This document shows, piece after piece, positions 7,432-46,844 of a stretch of 64,000 nt of DNA. The notes beneath the pieces were generated by a model. That model was not told the origin of the DNA and did no database searches. It saw nothing but the letters and a program-made list of their open reading frames with translations. Within the stretch, counting starts at the first letter, position 1. Every line of letters begins with the position of its first letter. A program made the position numbers and the translations under genes. Source of the DNA: an uncultured bacterium. GTDB taxonomy: Bacteria > Pseudomonadota > Alphaproteobacteria > SMXQ01. The stretch is from positions 603 to 64,602 of the forward strand of contig CBDUSV010000001.1 of the NCBI GenBank assembly GCA_965369885.1. The letters are read 5' to 3'.

Positions 7432-7729
7432 GACGCCGGCAGCCCAAACCATCCCGACTGGGCCGGTTTTTGGGCCCAATGTCCAAATCAACCCTTGATT
7501 AACCATAACCGGCGCCGCCAGCGCCGCTCAGGCCCCTAAAGCCCGGTTTTCGCGATGGACGATCACTGCGTTGTTGCGGCCGAGTTTGAAACTTTGTTCG
7601 CCCCACCATGAGCTTTTCCGGGCACCTTGGCCCTTACCACGAAAAAACTTAACTATTACCCTTAACTCATTGATATTTTTCGCAAAATTTATCTTGATTT
7701 TGAGGCTCTATTTAGCCATTTTGGATGTG

Positions 7730-7799
7730 CCGGGCAACCCGATGCCCGTCCCGATCCGATGCCCCGGACAATCCATGTGTCCCGGGCGATCCGATGCCC
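7730..7799 (+). repeat. Three copies of a CCGATGCCC-containing motif immediately upstream of the nfu RBS
   Basis: The 12-mer GATCCGATGCCC occurs identically at 7753-7764 and 7788-7799, and a 10/12 copy sits at 7736-7747. The extended 19-nt units (G)CCGGGC(A/G)A(C/T)CCGATGCCC lie 51 bp apart. Confidence 0.6.
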
Positions 7800-7816
7800 A
7801 GGACGAGGGATAAAAC

Positions 7817-8377
7817 ATGTTCATACAGACCGAACTGACCCCCAATCCCGCCACCCTGAAATTCCTTCCTGGCCAGATGGTCATGGGTTCAGGCACCGCG
7901 GATTTCACCAGCGCCGAGGCGGCGCGACGATCACCCTTGGCCGAAGCGCTTTTCGAGGTCGAGGGGATCAAAGGCGTCTTTTTGGGCGCCGATTTCGTGA
8001 CCGTGACCAAGGATGACGGCACGGACTGGCAAGTTCTCAAGCCTTCGGTGCTTGGCATTGTCATGGAGCATTTCACCTCCGGCGCGGCGATCCTCAATGA
8101 CGAGGCCGCCGGCGACGAGGCCGGTGCGGCGACGGCGGAGGAGGACGAAGAGGTGGTTGCTCAGATCAAGGAGCTGCTGGAGACCCGGGTTCGCCCGGCG
8201 GTTGCCCAAGATGGCGGCGACATCGTCTTCCACCGTTTCAAGGACGGCATCGTCCATCTGCAGCTTCAAGGCGCCTGCTCCGGCTGCCCCAGTTCCACGG
8301 CGACCCTGAAGATGGGGATCGAGAATTTGCTCAAGCATTACATACCCGAAGTTTTGGAAGTACGCGCAGTTCAATAG
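7817..8377 (+). CDS. NifU-like Fe-S cluster scaffold/carrier (Nfu family)
   Basis: The protein has an Nfu N-terminal domain and a C-terminal CxxC motif (GACSGCPSS). A GAGGGA Shine-Dalgarno precedes the ATG. Confidence 0.8.
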   Translation: MFIQTELTPNPATLKFLPGQMVMGSGTADFTSAEAARRSPLAEALFEVEGIKGVFLGADFVTVTKDDGTDWQVLKPSVLGIVMEHFTSGAAILNDEAAGDEAGAATAEEDEEVVAQIKELLETRVRPAVAQDGGDIVFHRFKDGIVHLQLQGACSGCPSSTATLKMGIENLLKHYIPEVLEVRAVQ

Positions 8378-11584: not shown

Positions 11585-12319
11585 ATGAAGATCCTGGCGA
11601 TGGATTCGGCGACATCGGCCTGTTCGGCGGCGGTGTGGTGCGACGGCGCCATCCAAGCGCACCGTTTCCAGGCCATGGAACGGGGCCAATCGGAGGCCCT
11701 CATCCCCATGGTGATCGAGACCGTCGCCCAGGCCGGGCTGGAATTCGCCGATCTTGATCTCATTGCCGTCACCACCGGGCCCGGGGCTTTCACCGGTGTG
11801 CGCATCGGCCTGGCCTCGGCCCGCGGCCTGGCCCTGGCCGGGGATCTGCCGATGGTTGGCGTCACCACATTGGAAGCGGTGGCCCGGGGCGTGCCCGCCG
11901 ATGAGCGCCAGGATCGCCGGCTGGTGGTGGTGATCGACGCCAAAAGGCGGGATTTTTACGGCCAATGTTTCGGCTCCGGCCTGGAAGCCCTGGGCCCGCC
12001 CGCGGCCGTGATGCCACAAGACGCCCAGGAGCTACTATCGCCGGGTCCGGTGCTGGTGGCCGGTGATGGTGCCGAGCAGTTGCGCGCCGCCCTTGCCGGG
12101 CGCCGCAATGGCGCCCGGGAGGGAGACTTGGCCCGGGAGGGAGACTTCGATGGAGACCATATTCGCTATTCCCAGGCCCCGGGCCGTCCCGACGCCGTCC
12201 AGGTTGCGGCCATCGCCGCCGAGCGCGGGCCCGAGGGCGCGCGCGCCCCGGTGCGGCCGCTCTATCTGCGTCCACCGGATGCCACCCTGCCCAGCGACGG
12301 TGGTAGGCTCAGACCATGA
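11585..12319 (+). CDS. tsaB: tRNA threonylcarbamoyladenosine biosynthesis protein TsaB (YeaZ)
   Basis: The protein has the Kae1/YgjD-like inactive paralog fold (MKILAMDSATSACSAAV…TGPGAFTGVRIG). Conserved tsaB-rimI pairing supports the call. Confidence 0.85.
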   Translation: MKILAMDSATSACSAAVWCDGAIQAHRFQAMERGQSEALIPMVIETVAQAGLEFADLDLIAVTTGPGAFTGVRIGLASARGLALAGDLPMVGVTTLEAVARGVPADERQDRRLVVVIDAKRRDFYGQCFGSGLEALGPPAAVMPQDAQELLSPGPVLVAGDGAEQLRAALAGRRNGAREGDLAREGDFDGDHIRYSQAPGRPDAVQVAAIAAERGPEGARAPVRPLYLRPPDATLPSDGGRLRP

Positions 12320-12333
12320 TCATAAGGGGGACC

Positions 12334-12921
12334 ATGACGGGAAACAGCCGGCCCAAGGGCGCCCGCAAAGGCGCCAAAACCAATGCCACAAAAGCCATGG
12401 ATGGCGGCGACGTCACCCTTGTCGCGGTATCCCCGGCCTATCATTACTTGGTCGCCGCCCTTCACGGTCTTTGCTTTGATGATGCGTGGAGCGCCAACAC
12501 CGTGAGCCAGGTCATGAACATGAAGGGCGCTTTCGGATATACCGCGCAACTCGAAGCTGAAGCGGGGGCACAAGTGGGGGATGTGGGCGGCAATGGCGCC
12601 GTCAGCGCGGCGACGCCGGCGCCCGCCGGCTTCGTCCTTTGCCATCTTGTCGCCGACGAATGCGAGATTCTTTCCCTCGGGGTGGCTCCCGAATGCCGTG
12701 GCAAGGGGATCGGGGCGCGGCTGGTGGGGGCCGCCGTGGACAAAGGCCGTGCCCTGGGGGCCGAGCGGCTGTTTCTAGAGGTCGCGGAAGACAACGAGAC
12801 CGCACGGGGGCTTTATAACGCCCATGGCTTCACCCCGGTGGGGCGCCGCCCGGGCTATTACAAGCGCCAGGGCGCGTCATCGGTGGCGGCCCTTACGCTG
12901 TGCCTCGATGTGACCGGCTAA
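12334..12921 (+). CDS. rimI: Ribosomal-protein-alanine N-acetyltransferase RimI (GNAT)
   Basis: The protein has a GNAT acetyl-CoA binding motif (…CRGKGIGARLVGAAV…). The ATG at 12334 is preceded by an AGGGGG Shine-Dalgarno; an earlier ATG at 12316 overlaps the tsaB stop, so the start is ambiguous. Confidence 0.75.
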   Translation: MTGNSRPKGARKGAKTNATKAMDGGDVTLVAVSPAYHYLVAALHGLCFDDAWSANTVSQVMNMKGAFGYTAQLEAEAGAQVGDVGGNGAVSAATPAPAGFVLCHLVADECEILSLGVAPECRGKGIGARLVGAAVDKGRALGAERLFLEVAEDNETARGLYNAHGFTPVGRRPGYYKRQGASSVAALTLCLDVTG

Positions 12922-13181
12922 CCCTTTCGGATGCGTAATATATAGACGGTCCCGGGGTCGTCCGGGGACGGCGATTTGCCGTCGGCGGGCTCCAAGGAGA
13001 GCACCTGGTGGCCGGTCTCACGGACCGAACGCGGCACGTTTTCCAGTGGCTCGGCACCCTTGATGCGGATGGCCGCGGTCTCGCCGGACGACATCCGCTC
13101 GATTAACAATTTGGTCTTAACAAAGGTAAGCGGACACACTTCTTGTGTTATGTCTAGATTGTGATCCACTACATCTGTCAT
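12918..13181 (-). CDS. TusA-like sulfurtransferase (SirA/YedF/YeeD family)
   Basis: The 87-aa protein carries the TusA CPxP active-site motif (EVCPLTF). The gene is notably AT-rich relative to its flanks and overlaps the rimI 3' end convergently. Confidence 0.65.
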   Translation of the reverse strand: MTDVVDHNLDITQEVCPLTFVKTKLLIERMSSGETAAIRIKGAEPLENVPRSVRETGHQVLSLEPADGKSPSPDDPGTVYILRIRKG

Positions 13182-13215
13182 TCTCGCCGTCCAATTGTAT
13201 ATATTGAATATGTTA

Positions 13216-13244
13216 TTGCTAAAACCAGCTAAAAAACTTATATT
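13216..13244 (+). promoter_or_regulatory. Candidate sigma70-type promoter for the MucR/Ros gene
   Basis: The -35 is TTGCTA (13216-13221), followed by a 17-nt spacer and a -10 of TATATT (13239-13244). It lies inside a 95-bp AT-rich divergent intergenic region. Confidence 0.4.
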
Positions 13245-13276
13245 TCATTTGATATTTTGACAGGGAGAAATGTTAA

Positions 13277-13699
13277 ATGGCTGAAGCTACGGATTCAAGC
13301 GAACTGCTCGAATTGACGACCGAGATTGTTTCATCTCACGTCGCCAACAACCCGGTCACGGTGAATGATCTGCCGAATTTGATTCAGCAGGTTTACAACA
13401 CCTTGGCCACCATCGGGAAGTCTTCCGCTCCCGCAGCCGAACGTCCCCAGCCGGCGGTGCCGATTAAGCGGTCGGTGACCCCTGATTTTATCATCTGTCT
13501 CGAAGATGGCCGGAAGCTCAAGATGTTGAAGCGTCATCTCAAGACCGCCTACAACATGACCCCCGAAGAATACCGCGAGCGTTGGGCGCTGACCCCCGAT
13601 TATCCCATGGTTGCCCCCAATTACGCCAAGCAGCGGAGTACCTTGGCCAAGAAAATCGGCCTCGGCACCAAGCCACGCGGCCGGTCACAGAACAATTGA
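13277..13699 (+). CDS. Ros/MucR family zinc-finger transcriptional regulator
   Basis: The 140-aa protein has the Ros/MucR C2H2-like segment (…FIICLEDGRKLKMLKRHLKTAYNMTPEEYRERW…). A GGGAGAA Shine-Dalgarno precedes the ATG. Confidence 0.8.
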   Translation: MAEATDSSELLELTTEIVSSHVANNPVTVNDLPNLIQQVYNTLATIGKSSAPAAERPQPAVPIKRSVTPDFIICLEDGRKLKMLKRHLKTAYNMTPEEYRERWALTPDYPMVAPNYAKQRSTLAKKIGLGTKPRGRSQNN

Positions 13700-13789
13700 G
13701 ATTACGCCTGAGCAGATGTTGGCCTTGCGCACCGGACGGCCCGCCGCAAAGCCAACGCCCTGTTGGCATGAAAAAAAGTCAACTATAGT

Positions 13790-14251
13790 GTGAGTAATAT
13801 GGTTTCAAGTTTCGCAATAATGTCCCCTCTTGAGAAGCTCTGCCGGGATAAGGGCATGAGAATGACCGACCAGCGCCGGGTGATTGCCCGTGTGCTGTCG
13901 GAGGCATCCAACCATCCCGATGTCGATGAGGTTCACCGCCGGGCGGTGGATGTCGACCCCCGTATCAGCATTGCCACGGTTTACCGTACCGTACGTTTGT
14001 TCGAGGAGGCCGAGATCATCGCCCGTCACGATTTCGGGGATGGTAGGGCGCGTTACGAAAAACTACCCATAAGCCATCATGATCATCTGATTGACATCAG
14101 GACCGGAAAAGTCATTGAGTTCCGCAGCGAAAGAATAGAAAATCTGCAGCGTGAGATTTCCAGGGAATTGGGTTATGATCTGGTTGATCACCGCCTCGAA
14201 CTTTTTGGCATCCCAATAAAGGGCGACGAAAAGGCGAAGAGAAAAGCGTAA
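13790..14251 (+). CDS. Fur family transcriptional regulator (Fur/Mur-type)
   Basis: The protein has a winged-helix N-terminus and the HHDH metal-site motif (ISHHDHLIDIRTGKVIEF). The start could instead be the internal ATG at 13820. Confidence 0.75.
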   Translation: MSNMVSSFAIMSPLEKLCRDKGMRMTDQRRVIARVLSEASNHPDVDEVHRRAVDVDPRISIATVYRTVRLFEEAEIIARHDFGDGRARYEKLPISHHDHLIDIRTGKVIEFRSERIENLQREISRELGYDLVDHRLELFGIPIKGDEKAKRKA

Positions 14252-14313
14252 GTCACCTCTACGTCTTCGGCTATTGTGGATAGATCGGAATTCGAAAACG
14301 GGTATTCGGAATC

Positions 14314-15135
14314 ATGAGTGCCAGTGATTGCAAGGACAATCGATTCTGCAATTTGTGGGCCGGCAGCCTAGAGGTTCGGCTCGCAACCTCTGAAGCCGAA
14401 GTGGTTGCCGCCCAGCTGTTGCGGTACCGTGTTTTCTACGAGGAAATGGCGGCGATCCCGACCAAGGAAATGGCGGCCCTGCGCCGCGATTTCGACGCTT
14501 TCGACGCCGATTGCGACCATTTGCTGGTCATCGATCATAGCTTGGCCGAAGGTGCCAACAAGGTGGTGGGAACTTACCGGCTGATCCGCCGCGAGGCCGC
14601 CAAGCGCCTGGGCGGGTTCTATTCGGCCAGCGAATACAACATCAGCAAACTTGAAGCCCATAAGGCCGAAATTCTCGAACTCGGCCGGTCATGCGTCGAT
14701 GTTGCCTATCGCACCCGCGGCGCCATGCAACTGTTGTGGCAAAGCATCGTCGCCTATGTTTACCATTACGATATCGCCTTTTTGTTCGGCTGCGCCAGCT
14801 TGCCGGGCACCGACGTGGCGAAACAGGCGGACAAGCTCTCTTATCTCTATCACTATCACCTGGCGCCGCCGGCCCTGAGACCGCGGGCGCTGGACCAACG
14901 TTATGTCCAGATGAACCTGATGGCGGAGGATGAAATCGATACCCGCGCCACCCTGGCGTCGATGCCGCCATTGATCAAAGGGTATCTGCGGGTTGGTTGC
15001 TTCGTCGGTGACGGGGCGGTGATCGATGAACAGTTCAACACCATCGACGTTTGTATCGTGGTCAAGTCCACTCTCATCACCGCAAGATATGCCCGCCACT
15101 ATGAACGCAGCACGCGCCTGGCCGGGGCCGCTTAA
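14314..15135 (+). CDS. olsB: Ornithine-acyl-ACP N-acyltransferase OlsB (hemolysin-like GNAT N-acyltransferase)
   Basis: The 273-aa protein belongs to the OlsB/hemolysin-like acyltransferase family and sits immediately upstream of a PlsC-family acyltransferase, the classic olsB-olsA pair. Confidence 0.65.
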   Translation: MSASDCKDNRFCNLWAGSLEVRLATSEAEVVAAQLLRYRVFYEEMAAIPTKEMAALRRDFDAFDADCDHLLVIDHSLAEGANKVVGTYRLIRREAAKRLGGFYSASEYNISKLEAHKAEILELGRSCVDVAYRTRGAMQLLWQSIVAYVYHYDIAFLFGCASLPGTDVAKQADKLSYLYHYHLAPPALRPRALDQRYVQMNLMAEDEIDTRATLASMPPLIKGYLRVGCFVGDGAVIDEQFNTIDVCIVVKSTLITARYARHYERSTRLAGAA

Positions 15136-21801: not shown

Positions 21802-21875
21802 AATTCCGAAATTCCGGCGCAACTGCACAAATCTGGTGCAAATCGGCCAAAATTGCTCGATTCCTGCGGTTTTTG

Positions 21876-21903
21876 TTGACTGCATACCATCGTATGCTAT
21901 CAA
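21876..21903 (+). promoter_or_regulatory. Candidate promoter of the XRE regulator gene with an embedded operator-like palindrome
   Basis: The -35 is TTGACT (21876-21881), followed by a 16-nt spacer that is a perfect inverted repeat (GCATAC-catc-GTATGC, 21882-21897), then a -10-like TATCAA. Confidence 0.4.
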
Positions 21904-21946
21904 AACTCCGGGGAGCATGTTCAAGAATCGGGTAGGAGCCACTGAA

Positions 21947-22396
21947 ATGGCAAGGCTCGCACGGCCACGAAAAAAACGGACCAGGAATGTTTCAATCGAC
22001 GGTCCCAATCCCGTCGATGTCCATGTCGGCACCAGGGTGCGTCAACGCCGGACCCTGTTGGGTATGAGCCAGGAGAAATTGGGCAATGCCGTCGGCCTGA
22101 CCTTCCAGCAAATTCAGAAATACGAACGGGGCACCAACCGGATCGGCGCCAGCCGGCTGCATGAATTCAGCAATATCCTCGATGTGCCGGTATCTTTTTT
22201 CTTTGACGAGCTTCCCCAAAGGGGACGGTCGCGCCAGGCCCGGGGTTTTTCCGAGGGCGCGCAAAACAAGTTCGAACATGATGCCTTCTCCAAGCGCGAG
22301 ACCCTGGAACTGGTTCGCGCCTATTACCGCATCACCGACAAGCAGGTGCGCAAGCGCATCGTCGATATGATCCGCTCGGTCGGCAAAGCCCTGTGA
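21947..22396 (+). CDS. XRE-family helix-turn-helix transcriptional regulator (conserved neighbour of metK in alphaproteobacteria)
   Basis: The protein has a Cro/C1-type HTH (…LGMSQEKLGNAVGLTFQQIQKYERGTNRI…). The ATG at 21947 is 8 nt downstream of an AGGAG Shine-Dalgarno. Confidence 0.75.
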   Translation: MARLARPRKKRTRNVSIDGPNPVDVHVGTRVRQRRTLLGMSQEKLGNAVGLTFQQIQKYERGTNRIGASRLHEFSNILDVPVSFFFDELPQRGRSRQARGFSEGAQNKFEHDAFSKRETLELVRAYYRITDKQVRKRIVDMIRSVGKAL

Positions 22397-32051: not shown

Positions 32052-32231
32052 GCCATTGTCGTGTGCAACCGCCGCGTCCGGTGACAAGGCGGGAAATCAC
32101 AGTTTGTCAATCCAAGGCATGTTTGGCGCCGCGGTCAAAGCCCGTGGCGATGTAAGTGTTGGAAGAGAGATGGATATAAATCAACGGCGCGTTCGTCATA
32201 GGGGCGCCCGCGCCATGGAAGGAAGATAATA

Positions 32232-34361
32232 ATGTTTAATATAATTACCAAAGAACTTGAGTTGGGCGGCCGCAAGCTGGTCATGGAGACCGGAAGAATG
32301 GCCCGCCAGGCCGATGGCGCGGTCCTCGTCACCTATGGCGAGACCACGATCCTGTGCACCGCCGTCGCCCAGAAGACACCGAAGCAGGGCATCGACTTTT
32401 TCCCGCTGACGGTCAACTACCAGGAAAAGACTTTTGCCGCCGGCAAGATTCCGGGAGGCTTCTTCAAGCGTGAAGGCCGTCCCAGCGAGAAGGAAACCCT
32501 GACCTCGCGCCTCATCGACCGGCCGATCCGGCCATTGTTTCACCCCAATTTCCGCAATGAAACCCAGGTCATCTGCACCGTGATCAGTCATGATCTGGAA
32601 AACGATCCCGACATTCCCGCCCTGATCGGCGCGTCGGCGGCGCTGACCATTTCCGGCATCCCCTTCATGGGGCCGATCGCCGGCGCCCGGGTCGGCTATA
32701 TCGACGGCGAATATGTGCTCAACCCCCAGATCGACGAGATGCCCAATTCCAAGCTCGACTTGGTGATGGCGGGCACCAATGACGGGGTCTTGATGGTCGA
32801 ATCCGAGGCCGGCGAGCTGTCGGAACAGGTCATGCTCGGTGCCGTCATGTTCGGCCACAAGGAATGCCAGAAAGTCATCAGCGCCATCATCGAACTGGCC
32901 GAGGACGCCGCCAAGGAGCCCTGGGCCATCGCCGATGCCCCCGCCGAGACCGAGACCGTGGCCGACCGCATTCGCGAACTGGCCGAAAGCGATCTTCGCA
33001 GCGCCTATGAAGAGGTCGATAAACAGACCCGCACCGACAAGATCGCGAACGTCAAGTCGGCGGTGTCCGAAACCCTCATAGCGGAAGAACTTGATCCCAA
33101 CCTATTCGGAGCTCAGTTCAAGAAGTTGGAAAAGGACATCGTCCGTGGCGCGATCCTCGAGACCGGCAAACGCATCGATGGCCGCGATACCTCCACGGTG
33201 CGCCAGATCATGGGCGAGGTCGGCGTGCTGCCGCGCGCCCATGGCAGCGCGCTGTTCACCCGCGGTGAAACCCAGGCCCTGGTGGTCGCCACCCTGGGCA
33301 CCGGCCAGGATGAGCAGATCATCGATGCCCTGTCCGGCGATTACCGGGAACATTTCCTGCTGCATTACAACTTCCCACCCTATTCGGTGGGCGAGGCGTC
33401 GTTCCTGCGTTCACCGGGCCGCCGCGAGATCGGCCACGGCAAACTGGCGTGGCGCGCGCTGCGTCCGGTGATGCCGACCAAGGAGGATTTCCCCTACACC
33501 ATCCGCGTGGTGTCCGAGATCACCGAATCCAACGGCTCGTCCTCGATGGCGACGGTGTGCGGATCGGCGCTTTCGATGATGGATGCCGGCGTGCCGCTGT
33601 CGAAACCGGTGGCCGGCATCGCCATGGGCCTGATCAAGGAAGGCGATAAGTTCGCGGTGCTGTCCGACATTCTGGGTGACGAGGATCATCTCGGCGACAT
33701 GGATTTCAAGGTCGCCGGCACCACCGATGGCATCACCGCCCTGCAGATGGACATCAAGATCACCTCGATCACCGAGGAGATCATGGCCACCGCCCTGGAT
33801 CAGGCCTTGGCGGGACGCCAGCACATCCTTGGCGAGATGTCCAAGGCCCTGGACCACGCCCGAGCCGAGGTCAGCGCCAACGCGCCCCGTATCACCACCA
33901 TGCAGATCCCCAAGGACAAGATCCGCGAGGTCATCGGCACCGGCGGCAAGGTCATCCGGGAAATCTGCGAGACCACCGGGGCCAAGATCGACATCGAGGA
34001 TGACGGCACCATCAAGGTGGCGGCGGTCGAGGCCAAGGCCGCCGAAGAAGCCGTCGAATGGATCCGCTCCATCGTCGCCGAGCCCGAGATCGGGACCATC
34101 TATTCCGGCAAGGTGGTGAAGGTGGTCGATTTCGGCGCCTTCGTGAACTTCCTGGGCTCCCGGGACGGCCTGGTCCATATCAGCGAGCTCATCGAAGGAC
34201 GCTGCAACAAGGTCACCGACGTGGTGAATGAGGGCGACATGGTCAAGGTCAAGGTGTTGGCCATCGACGACCGCGGCAAGGTCCGCCTCAGCCTGCGCGC
34301 CGTCAATCAGGAAACCGGCGAGGACATCACCAAATCCAAGGATTCCACGGCGGCCGAATAA
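32232..34361 (+). CDS. pnp: Polyribonucleotide nucleotidyltransferase (PNPase)
   Basis: The 709-aa protein has two RNase PH domains, a KH domain and an S1 domain. A 180-nt leader follows rpsO. Confidence 0.95.
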
Positions 34362-36801: not shown

Positions 36802-37221
36802 GTGGATCGTCCTTATAGTCATATCCTGGATCGTCTCAAGATGGCGGGCCTGCGCCCGACCCGTCAACGCCTGGCGCTCGCCAAATTGTTGTTCGATGGC
36901 GGCCAACGTCATGTCACGGCGGAGCAACTCCATAGCGAGGCGATAGGCCAAGGCATCCGGGTGTCCCTCGCCACCGTCTACAACACCCTCCACCAGTTCA
37001 CCACGGCGGATTTTCTGCGTGAGATCGTCGTCGATTCGGGGCGGTCCTATTTCGACACCAACACCACCGACCACTATCACTTCTTTTTCGAAGATACCCG
37101 TGAACTCAAGGATATTTCCAAGGATGCCGTGAGCTTCGCCCATCTGCCGAAGCCTCCCAAGGGCACCAACGTAAAATGCGTCGATGTGGTCATCCGCGTC
37201 GAAAATTCCCGAAATTCCTGA
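36802..37221 (+). CDS. Fur family transcriptional regulator, Irr/PerR-like
   Basis: The protein has a Fur-type winged helix and an H-Y-H motif (TDHYHFFFED) in place of the canonical HHDH. It lies upstream of rubrerythrin and an ICE-type box. The start is either 36802 or ATG 36841. Confidence 0.65.
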   Translation: MDRPYSHILDRLKMAGLRPTRQRLALAKLLFDGGQRHVTAEQLHSEAIGQGIRVSLATVYNTLHQFTTADFLREIVVDSGRSYFDTNTTDHYHFFFEDTRELKDISKDAVSFAHLPKPPKGTNVKCVDVVIRVENSRNS

Positions 37222-37256
37222 GCATTTCCTACCGGCCGAAAACGCCGTAAAGTTAG

Positions 37257-37273
37257 TTTAGAGGCGTTCTAAA
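37257..37273 (+). promoter_or_regulatory. Irr-box / iron control element (ICE)-like operator
   Basis: The sequence TTTAGAG-gcg-TTCTAAA matches the alphaproteobacterial ICE consensus TTTAGAA-N3-TTCTAAA at 16 of 17 positions. Confidence 0.55.
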
Positions 37274-37295
37274 TTATTGACTCGCAGTGTTGATC

Positions 37296-37314
37296 GGTCC
37301 ATATAGTATGGACC
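37296..37314 (+). promoter_or_regulatory. Perfect inverted repeat, candidate second operator upstream of rubrerythrin
   Basis: The sequence GGTCCATA-tag-TATGGACC has two 8-bp arms with no mismatches. Confidence 0.4.
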
Positions 37315-37383
37315 AGGGCTTTATGGCGTAGACCGATCCGATTCCGAGAACCAAACCATTTCAATGCGTAAAGGAGAATGAAA

Positions 37384-37800
<417 letters not shown>

Positions 37801-46454: not shown

Positions 46455-46844
46455 ATGACATTCACAGCGATCGAGATCATTGCCATCATTCTCATAGGCG
46501 TTTCCATCATCAAGCTTGCCGTAATTGCCGTCTCTCCCGGTGCCTGGATCGGATTCGCCCGGAGAATCTATCTAAAGCCATGTGTAACCTCCGCCGTCGC
46601 CTTGGTGCTTGCGGCGGTGGTGTTGTACTTCCTGGTCGCCTCCGGGATGACGATTGTCCAGATTCTCGCCGTGTGGGTTTTCGTGGCGTTGATCATGGTC
46701 GTCGGCTTCGCCAATTATGCCGGTGACATCCTCGATTGGGCCTCGGGACGTGACATCAAGACCTGGATCGCGGAGCAATGGCTGCTCATGGTGATCTGGA
46801 TCGGCCTGCTGGTCTGGGGACTTCAGGCGATATTCTTTTCCTGA
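46455..46844 (+). CDS. Small integral membrane protein (about 4 TM helices), unknown function
   Basis: The 129-aa protein is strongly hydrophobic. It overlaps the 3' end of the convergent monooxygenase gene by 22 nt. Confidence 0.4.
   Translation: MTFTAIEIIAIILIGVSIIKLAVIAVSPGAWIGFARRIYLKPCVTSAVALVLAAVVLYFLVASGMTIVQILAVWVFVALIMVVGFANYAGDILDWASGRDIKTWIAEQWLLMVIWIGLLVWGLQAIFFS

Follow-up and report, generated by a model that had tools for sequence, protein, structure and literature searches.

Ros/MucR proteins are H-NS-like regulators with a preference for AT-rich DNA that contains T-A steps. In Brucella, MucR represses its own gene by binding several AT-rich sites with T-A steps in the mucR promoter (PMC5881533), and the zinc held by MucR is established to be structural (PMC9779718). 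A metal site carrying a tyrosine was reported in 2026 for the zinc-binding MucR2 and MucR3 of S. meliloti (PMC13297338). Here we describe a mucR gene of an uncultured alphaproteobacterium that lies between a divergent TusA-like gene (tusA) and fur, at positions 12918-14251 of a 64,000-nucleotide stretch of contig CBDUSV010000001.1. That whole stretch is referred to as the window, and all positions are counted from its first letter.

The first-pass annotation of this DNA had proposed that the segment may be an acquired island of low G+C (GC) content. Our analysis points to a different reading: the segment is probably part of a vertically inherited core block whose GC dip is intrinsic and conserved, and not an island. 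The block runs tsaB, rimI, the oppositely oriented TusA-like gene, mucR, fur, olsB, olsA, miaB and phoH. Pfam matches bore out the gene identities and coordinates assigned earlier to the TusA-like, Ros/MucR and Fur genes, which are arranged with their open reading frames (ORFs) as follows.

12918-13181, minus strand: TusA-like ORF, 87 amino acids; PF01206, 53.8 bits (Pfam gathering score 28.6)
13182-13276: divergent tusA/mucR spacer, 95 bp, 28% GC; probable MucR target
13277-13699, plus strand: Ros/MucR gene, 140 amino acids; PF05443, 171.8 bits (Pfam gathering score 25.4)
13790-14251, plus strand: Fur-family ORF as called mechanically from GTG 13790; PF01475, 124.6 bits
13820-14251, plus strand: fur from its likelier start, ATG 13820; 143 amino acids

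Two observations make the ATG at 13820 the more likely start of fur: alignments with homologues begin at about residue 9-14, and the gene is called as 143 amino acids in contigs that are about 90% identical.

GC content of the tusA, mucR and fur genes

GC content over 12918-14251 was 52.8%, compared with a window mean of 62.7% (same-size windows, standard deviation 2.8%); the background had earlier been put at about 65%, which is too high. Only 0.4% of same-size windows in the 64 kb were equally low in GC, and all of them overlapped the TusA-MucR-Fur locus. The low-GC stretch is therefore real, the windowed calculation placing this segment lowest of its size. GC and third-position GC (GC3) were 0.57 and 0.69 for tusA, 0.56 and 0.70 for mucR, and 0.52 and 0.58 for fur. 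The corresponding means for genes of the window were 0.62 ± 0.04 and 0.77 ± 0.07, and fur had the lowest GC3 of all family-supported genes. When the dip was partitioned for each gene, the amino-acid effect amounted to -2 to -4 GC points and the codon-choice effect to -3 to -6. The codon-choice effect reached z = -1.6 to -3.1 over the three genes and was strongest in fur.

The dip probably has three sources. One would be the roughly 250 bp around the 95-bp spacer, where AT content and T-A step density are high and back-to-back promoters are predicted. The second would be the AT-leaning amino-acid make-up of the three small proteins, and the third an AT-biased choice of codons, most marked in fur.

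Low GC elsewhere in the window was likewise found in small regulator genes, namely irr and an HTH_3 gene. Their similar dips agree with an explanation based on composition and expression without any part for MucR, in which small, weakly expressed regulators have AT-leaning amino acids and weak codon bias, and the spacer is AT-rich only through the packing of two promoters and two translation starts into 95 bp. We regard this explanation as doubtful in light of the spacer itself, which is described below.

Gene order in related genomes

Gene order was examined in two sets of loci. A scan with the Fur protein, limited to one genome per species, yielded 51 loci that were at most 73% identical. 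In about 35 of the 51, mucR lay directly upstream of fur within the same tsaB-rimI...olsBA-miaB-phoH backbone. The TusA-like gene occupied the same divergent position in 15 of those loci, which included Telmatospirillum and metagenome-assembled genomes labelled Rhodospirillaceae, Rhodospirillales and Acetobacterales. The tsaB-rimI-fur backbone, described as conserved in the first-pass annotation, does recur across related loci.

TusA-like homologues that were looked up (59-95% identity) were divergent from mucR-fur in 6/6 cases. A scan of metagenomes with the TusA-like alignment then gave 80 loci, 78 of which were testable. mucR was found divergently upstream of the TusA-like gene in 73/78 metagenomic loci, the median spacer length being 104 bp, and 3 of the remaining 5 had tusA directly divergent from fur. 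The pairing of TusA with these regulators had been called unusual; for this subfamily it is the rule.

Within the window, the backbone genes on either side of the segment are the following.

11585-12319, plus strand: tsaB, conserved backbone; TIGR03725 match exceeding the cut-off (171 bits); synteny kept in most related loci
12316-12921, plus strand: rimI-like GNAT acetyltransferase; PF00583 match; TIGR01575 at 70 bits, short of its cut-off of 86 bits
14314-15932, plus strand: olsB-like and olsA-like ornithine-lipid genes, downstream backbone; NF052555, 300 bits, and NF052553, 277 bits, both just under cut-off; syntenic

The miaB and phoH genes lie downstream of the olsB-like and olsA-like genes. 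The rimI-like and TusA-like genes are convergent and their stop codons overlap by 4 nt (12918-12921), an arrangement that leaves no room for a terminator and is also present in the ~90%-identical contigs L056-L061.

The rimI/fur junction occurred in four states among the related loci: empty (L006, L012, L015, L023, L025, L026, L040), with mucR only (L004-L022, L045), with tusA and mucR, and with tusA only (L081, L098, L117). It follows from these states that gain or loss of tusA at this one junction was independent of that of mucR.

The four states, and the tsaB-rimI-fur-miaB backbone as the wider pattern, would fit an ancient insertion. Under that explanation tusA-mucR entered the rimI/fur junction in a deep alphaproteobacterial ancestor and was then inherited vertically, with some losses, its AT-richness being kept by function. 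We consider this unlikely. The presence of tusA varies independently of that of mucR, unlike what a single cassette would show, fur's low GC is left unaccounted for, and gain versus loss is undecidable without a rooted species tree. An ancient insertion is nevertheless compatible with a vertically inherited block, our preferred reading, as far as the present state of the locus is concerned.

GC content and divergence of orthologous loci

Orthologues of all three genes were low in GC. Compared with flanking housekeeping genes, tusA was 9.3 points lower (negative in 17/17 loci), mucR 7.8 points lower (36/36 loci) and fur 5.5 points lower (48/48 loci). In 12 loci without mucR, fur was 4.7 points lower. 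The 120 bp upstream of mucR were on average 21.9 points under locus GC, a dip found in 88/88 dereplicated loci. Since orthologues share the dip, low GC is a conserved property of the genes and their control region and no foreign mark. The first-pass annotation had coupled the same gene order in orthologous genomes with native composition there; the order is indeed the same, but the relatives share the dip.

These data bear directly on the proposal of a recent island, in which tusA-mucR, possibly with fur, was acquired horizontally and still bears, unameliorated, the low GC of its donor, with MucR as the silencer. Such an origin would account for the lowest GC stretch of the window, and MucR paralogues do exist on plasmids and phages. 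We nonetheless judge it extremely improbable. The same order is present in many divergent lineages, the orthologous genes dip everywhere, and fur is low in GC also in genomes that have no mucR.

Divergence likewise agreed with that of the flanking genes. In a distance-based test of concordance, the protein distances of MucR, Fur and TusA gave Mantel rho values of 0.59, 0.56 and 0.40, respectively, against those of miaB+phoH (p <= 0.002 in each case). Identities of tusA, mucR and fur, taken gene by gene, tracked those of the neighbouring genes. The discordance with the flanks that would be expected of an island was not seen in this distance-based test.

Signs of mobility were absent as well. 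The window contained no tRNA gene, and no repeats were found bounding 12918-14251, where all three ORFs are accounted for and there is neither a mobility gene nor space for one. In a search of plasmid and phage DNA no record covered more than 20% of the segment, and the partial matches were confined to conserved core regions of the mucR or fur genes. Recurrence of the order in divergent lineages, the shared dip, concordant divergence and the lack of mobility signs together overturn the acquired island. They also call for care in reading a local GC dip in GC-rich alphaproteobacteria: over small regulators and their promoters such a dip can be ancient and conserved, and should not be taken as evidence of horizontal transfer.

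Replacement of fur by transfer was considered as a cause of its extra-low GC3 and was rejected because Fur identity tracks that of the neighbouring genes. The low GC3 of fur (0.58) was shared only by the ~90%-identical loci L058 and L060; the ~73%-identical L052 and L062 had values of 0.73-0.75.

The tusA-mucR intergenic region

The 95-bp spacer had the lowest GC of all intergenic regions in the window (z = -5.2; others 40-78%) and the highest density of T-A steps among them, at 11.6 per 100 bp. The AT-rich zone extended beyond the spacer on both sides. Windows of 95 bp with GC <= 0.40 started at 13088-13244, with a minimum of 0.26. GC3 in tusA was 0.50 over codons 1-32 and 0.80 over the remainder, and mucR showed 0.60 at its start versus 0.74. 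An AT-rich string quoted in the first-pass annotation, ttgtgttatgtctagattgtg, is located at 13143-13163, within the tusA coding region and not between genes. The zone and the promoters that can be predicted in and near it are listed below.

13088-13340: AT-rich zone centred on the spacer, taking in the first ~30 tusA codons and the mucR start
13216-13244, plus strand: predicted mucR promoter, TTGCTA-17-TATATT, with a GGGAGA ribosome-binding site at 13263-13268
13194-13222, minus strand: predicted tusA promoter, TTAGCA-17-TACAAT, tentative; its -35 hexamer overlaps that of mucR
13763-13789, plus strand: possible fur promoter, TTGGCA-15-TATAGT, with a short spacer; read from sequence on weak evidence

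The family's preference for AT-rich, T-A-step DNA and the self-repression of Brucella MucR together suggest that this zone is a site for MucR autoregulation that also controls the TusA-like gene. By the same analogy a role for the AT-rich spacer in the autoregulation of MucR is plausible, and MucR most likely binds the ~250-bp zone, where it would repress both its own gene and the TusA-like gene.

The composition-and-expression explanation without MucR was weighed against the same region. It is favoured by consensus promoter matches that do not rise above chance and by a fur dip that is present in loci lacking mucR. The spacer argues against it, being far below the other intergenic regions of the window in GC and highest in T-A step density, as does the extension of the AT-rich zone by ~100 bp into the tusA coding sequence, with rare codons. 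A dip of 22 points upstream of mucR in every one of the 88 loci is a further argument against it. In the tusA-only loci (n = 3, two lineages), the tusA-fur spacer dipped just 4-8 points under locus GC, and this smaller dip lends weak support to a MucR site in the tusA-mucR spacer.

In contigs about 90% identical, the tusA-mucR spacer was 88-93% identical and the mucR-fur spacer 72-75%. The hexamers of the predicted mucR promoter were invariant in these relatives and the intervening bases differed. TTGC-N17-TATAT-like sites precede mucR in several distant loci, and a post-hoc promoter pattern, chosen after viewing the data, was matched in 16/88 loci versus 3.3 expected. The promoter that had been called near-consensus is present at 13216-13244; its quality as a match, though, is no better than chance in such AT-rich DNA.

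Upstream of fur, a TATA[ACG]T element recurs at a similar distance in many loci, and judging by these sequences fur is probably transcribed from a separate promoter. A hairpin in the mucR-fur spacer was considered as a terminator or attenuator and dropped, as its fold was no better than shuffled (z = -0.7). Rfam gave no match at E <= 1 over 12700-14500, nor at gathering score over the whole window.

Several observations weigh against a conserved block with a MucR-bound control region. Shared ancestry among the related loci makes the counts and Mantel p-values given above overstate the support. The codon-choice dip of fur (z = -3.1) exceeds that of most orthologues. Sigma-70 scores of >=9/12 occurred upstream of mucR in 32% of real regions versus 25% of composition-matched shuffles, and because real and shuffled regions score alike the promoter positions are tentative. 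Finally, the predicted tusA promoter implies a leader of only ~5 nt. With these points taken into account, we still hold the vertically inherited block with an intrinsic dip to be the probable explanation.

The MucR, TusA-like and Fur proteins

MucR matched Ros (2JSP) at 1e-26. Zinc-ligand positions in the Ros/MucR family are 79, 82, 92 and 97 (Cys, Cys or Asp, His, His). The metal-site columns Cys79, Asp82 and His92 were kept in 36-37 of 37 sequences, and Ros His96/His97 were replaced by Ala/Tyr, resulting in a putative Cys-Asp-His-Tyr metal site (MucR residues 74-92). The Tyr-type site is found here in a MucR that looks to be the principal and syntenic one of a large clade. This widespread MucR clade would have a Tyr-type fourth ligand, a feature described only recently, for S. 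meliloti MucR2 and MucR3. MucR had been counted among the metal regulators of the locus; this does not hold, as MucR does not sense metal and its zinc is structural (PMC9779718).

The TusA-like subfamily has the motif LDIT.EVCPLTFVKTK, in which Cys16 is invariant; of CPxP, the motif that surrounds the persulfide-carrying Cys in TusA/SirA-like proteins, the second Pro is Thr (CPLTF) throughout. An AlphaFold2 model of the protein (mean pLDDT, the model's own confidence score, 78) had a predicted beta-alpha-beta-alpha-beta-beta fold, in line with the two-layer alpha/beta sandwich of this family, and Foldseek matched this model to E. coli TusA 3LVJ (TM 0.72) and YeeD 8K1R (TM 0.74). Only the YedF and TsuB/YeeD models among TusA-type NCBIfam entries were matched, no TusA-proper equivalog being listed; scores were 31.4 bits for YedF (cut-off 79) and 23.4 for TsuB (cut-off 147.5), and neither cut-off was reached. 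No tus, dsr or yeeE genes were present in the examined part of the window, ~7-19 kb. The CPLTF subfamily is uncharacterised, strongly conserved and almost always divergent from mucR-fur.

This linkage raises the question of a functional module, in which the TusA-like protein would act with MucR and/or Fur. It might pass on a signal of sulfur or redox state, received either by the Cys-Asp-His-Tyr site of MucR or by iron-sulfur homeostasis, or it might provide sulfur for neighbouring tRNA-modification genes such as miaB. The tight linkage (73/78 loci, median spacer 104 bp) with a shared control region, the strong conservation of a subfamily with an invariant Cys, and the persistence of the TusA-like gene beside fur in the three loci where mucR is absent all point that way. 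Linkage by itself, however, is no proof of a common function, many lineages have mucR-fur without tusA, and the protein is under the cut-offs of YedF and TsuB/YeeD. A full-text literature search for MucR together with TusA gave nothing relevant, and no paper linking the two was found. We consider a functional module improbable.

A more specific form of the idea is that the CPLTF subfamily is a dedicated partner of MucR and Fur, a persulfide or redox carrier made from the same bidirectional AT-rich region that would modulate MucR or link sulfur or iron-sulfur status to iron regulation and to tRNA A37-modification genes. This is a long shot. The TusA-MucR-Fur pairing itself is conserved, no description of it having been found in the literature, and the CPLTF subfamily is a concrete candidate to study alongside MucR and Fur.

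Fur matched Magnetospirillum gryphiswaldense Fur 4RAY at 8e-58 over 134 residues. It scored under the NCBIfam Fur equivalog cut-off (94.8 vs 146 bits) and was clearly not Irr (42.9 and 36.9 bits). Upstream of fur, no 19-mer had >=12/19 positions of the Fur box consensus, and there is therefore no sign of Fur autoregulation. The best Fur-box-like match in the window was 13/19 to GATAATGATAATCATTATC, at 32222-32250, in the interval separating the S15 gene from the one after it; position 46475 also has a match of 13/19, and none lay near fur. The genome has both Fur and Irr, each within a low-GC patch.

Other features of the window

Further low-GC genes and AT-rich spots were recorded elsewhere in the window. 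The irr gene is the following.

36802-37221: irr; IrrA equivalog, 203 bits, above cut-off

The window's second-lowest GC patch, 36802-37800, consists of irr followed by a rubrerythrin gene. The HTH_3 regulator is encoded at 21836-22396 (186 amino acids; GC and GC3 0.56 and 0.66), and its protein has weak, sub-threshold similarity to phage-type repressors and Wmk.

The second most AT-rich spot of the window lies within 7571-7813, where 95-bp windows starting at 7601-7655 reach 29% GC, with an AT-rich run at ~7640-7720. It is upstream of an Nfu/NifU-like gene (7817-8377). An 80-amino-acid ORF over this spot had no family match and is probably no gene; the spot may be another promoter or MucR-target-like region. 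Inside tsaB, a perfect tandem duplication of GCCCGGGAGGGAGACTT with an 18-nt period (12113-12147) encodes a repeated AREGD(L/F) peptide.

Comparison with known systems

Fur of this locus resembles M. gryphiswaldense Fur (4RAY) and Rhizobium Mur-type Fur in that the HHDH motif is kept, and the CxxC structural-zinc site is absent from both. It differs from them in scoring below the NCBIfam Fur equivalog cut-off.

The TusA-like protein shares PF01206, a Cys at the N-terminus of helix 1 and the fold with TusA/SirA-like carriers (E. coli TusA, YedF, YeeD/TsuB; TM0983), a class defined by taking up sulfur from a cysteine desulfurase and handing it on. Unlike those carriers, which have CPxP, it has CPLTF, and its scores are far under the YedF and TsuB equivalog cut-offs. 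Its genomic partner also differs, being mucR-fur.

MucR is similar to S. meliloti MucR2 and MucR3 in its Cys-Asp-His site, where Tyr replaces the His at the fourth position. Position 96, however, is Ala here, whereas MucR2 has Lys118-Tyr119 (PMC13297338). The N-terminal region of the protein aligns well with Ros.

There is also a likeness to the mucR/ros loci of Brucella, Agrobacterium and Sinorhizobium, which are autoregulated and in which MucR acts as an H-NS-like silencer. The protein has the N-terminal and DNA-binding domains of Ros/MucR, and the DNA preceding mucR is rich in AT and in T-A steps, the feature that Brucella MucR recognises in its own promoter (PMC5881533). In contrast to those loci, the predicted fourth zinc ligand here is Tyr where theirs is His, and mucR sits in the rimI/fur slot, divergent from a TusA-like gene.

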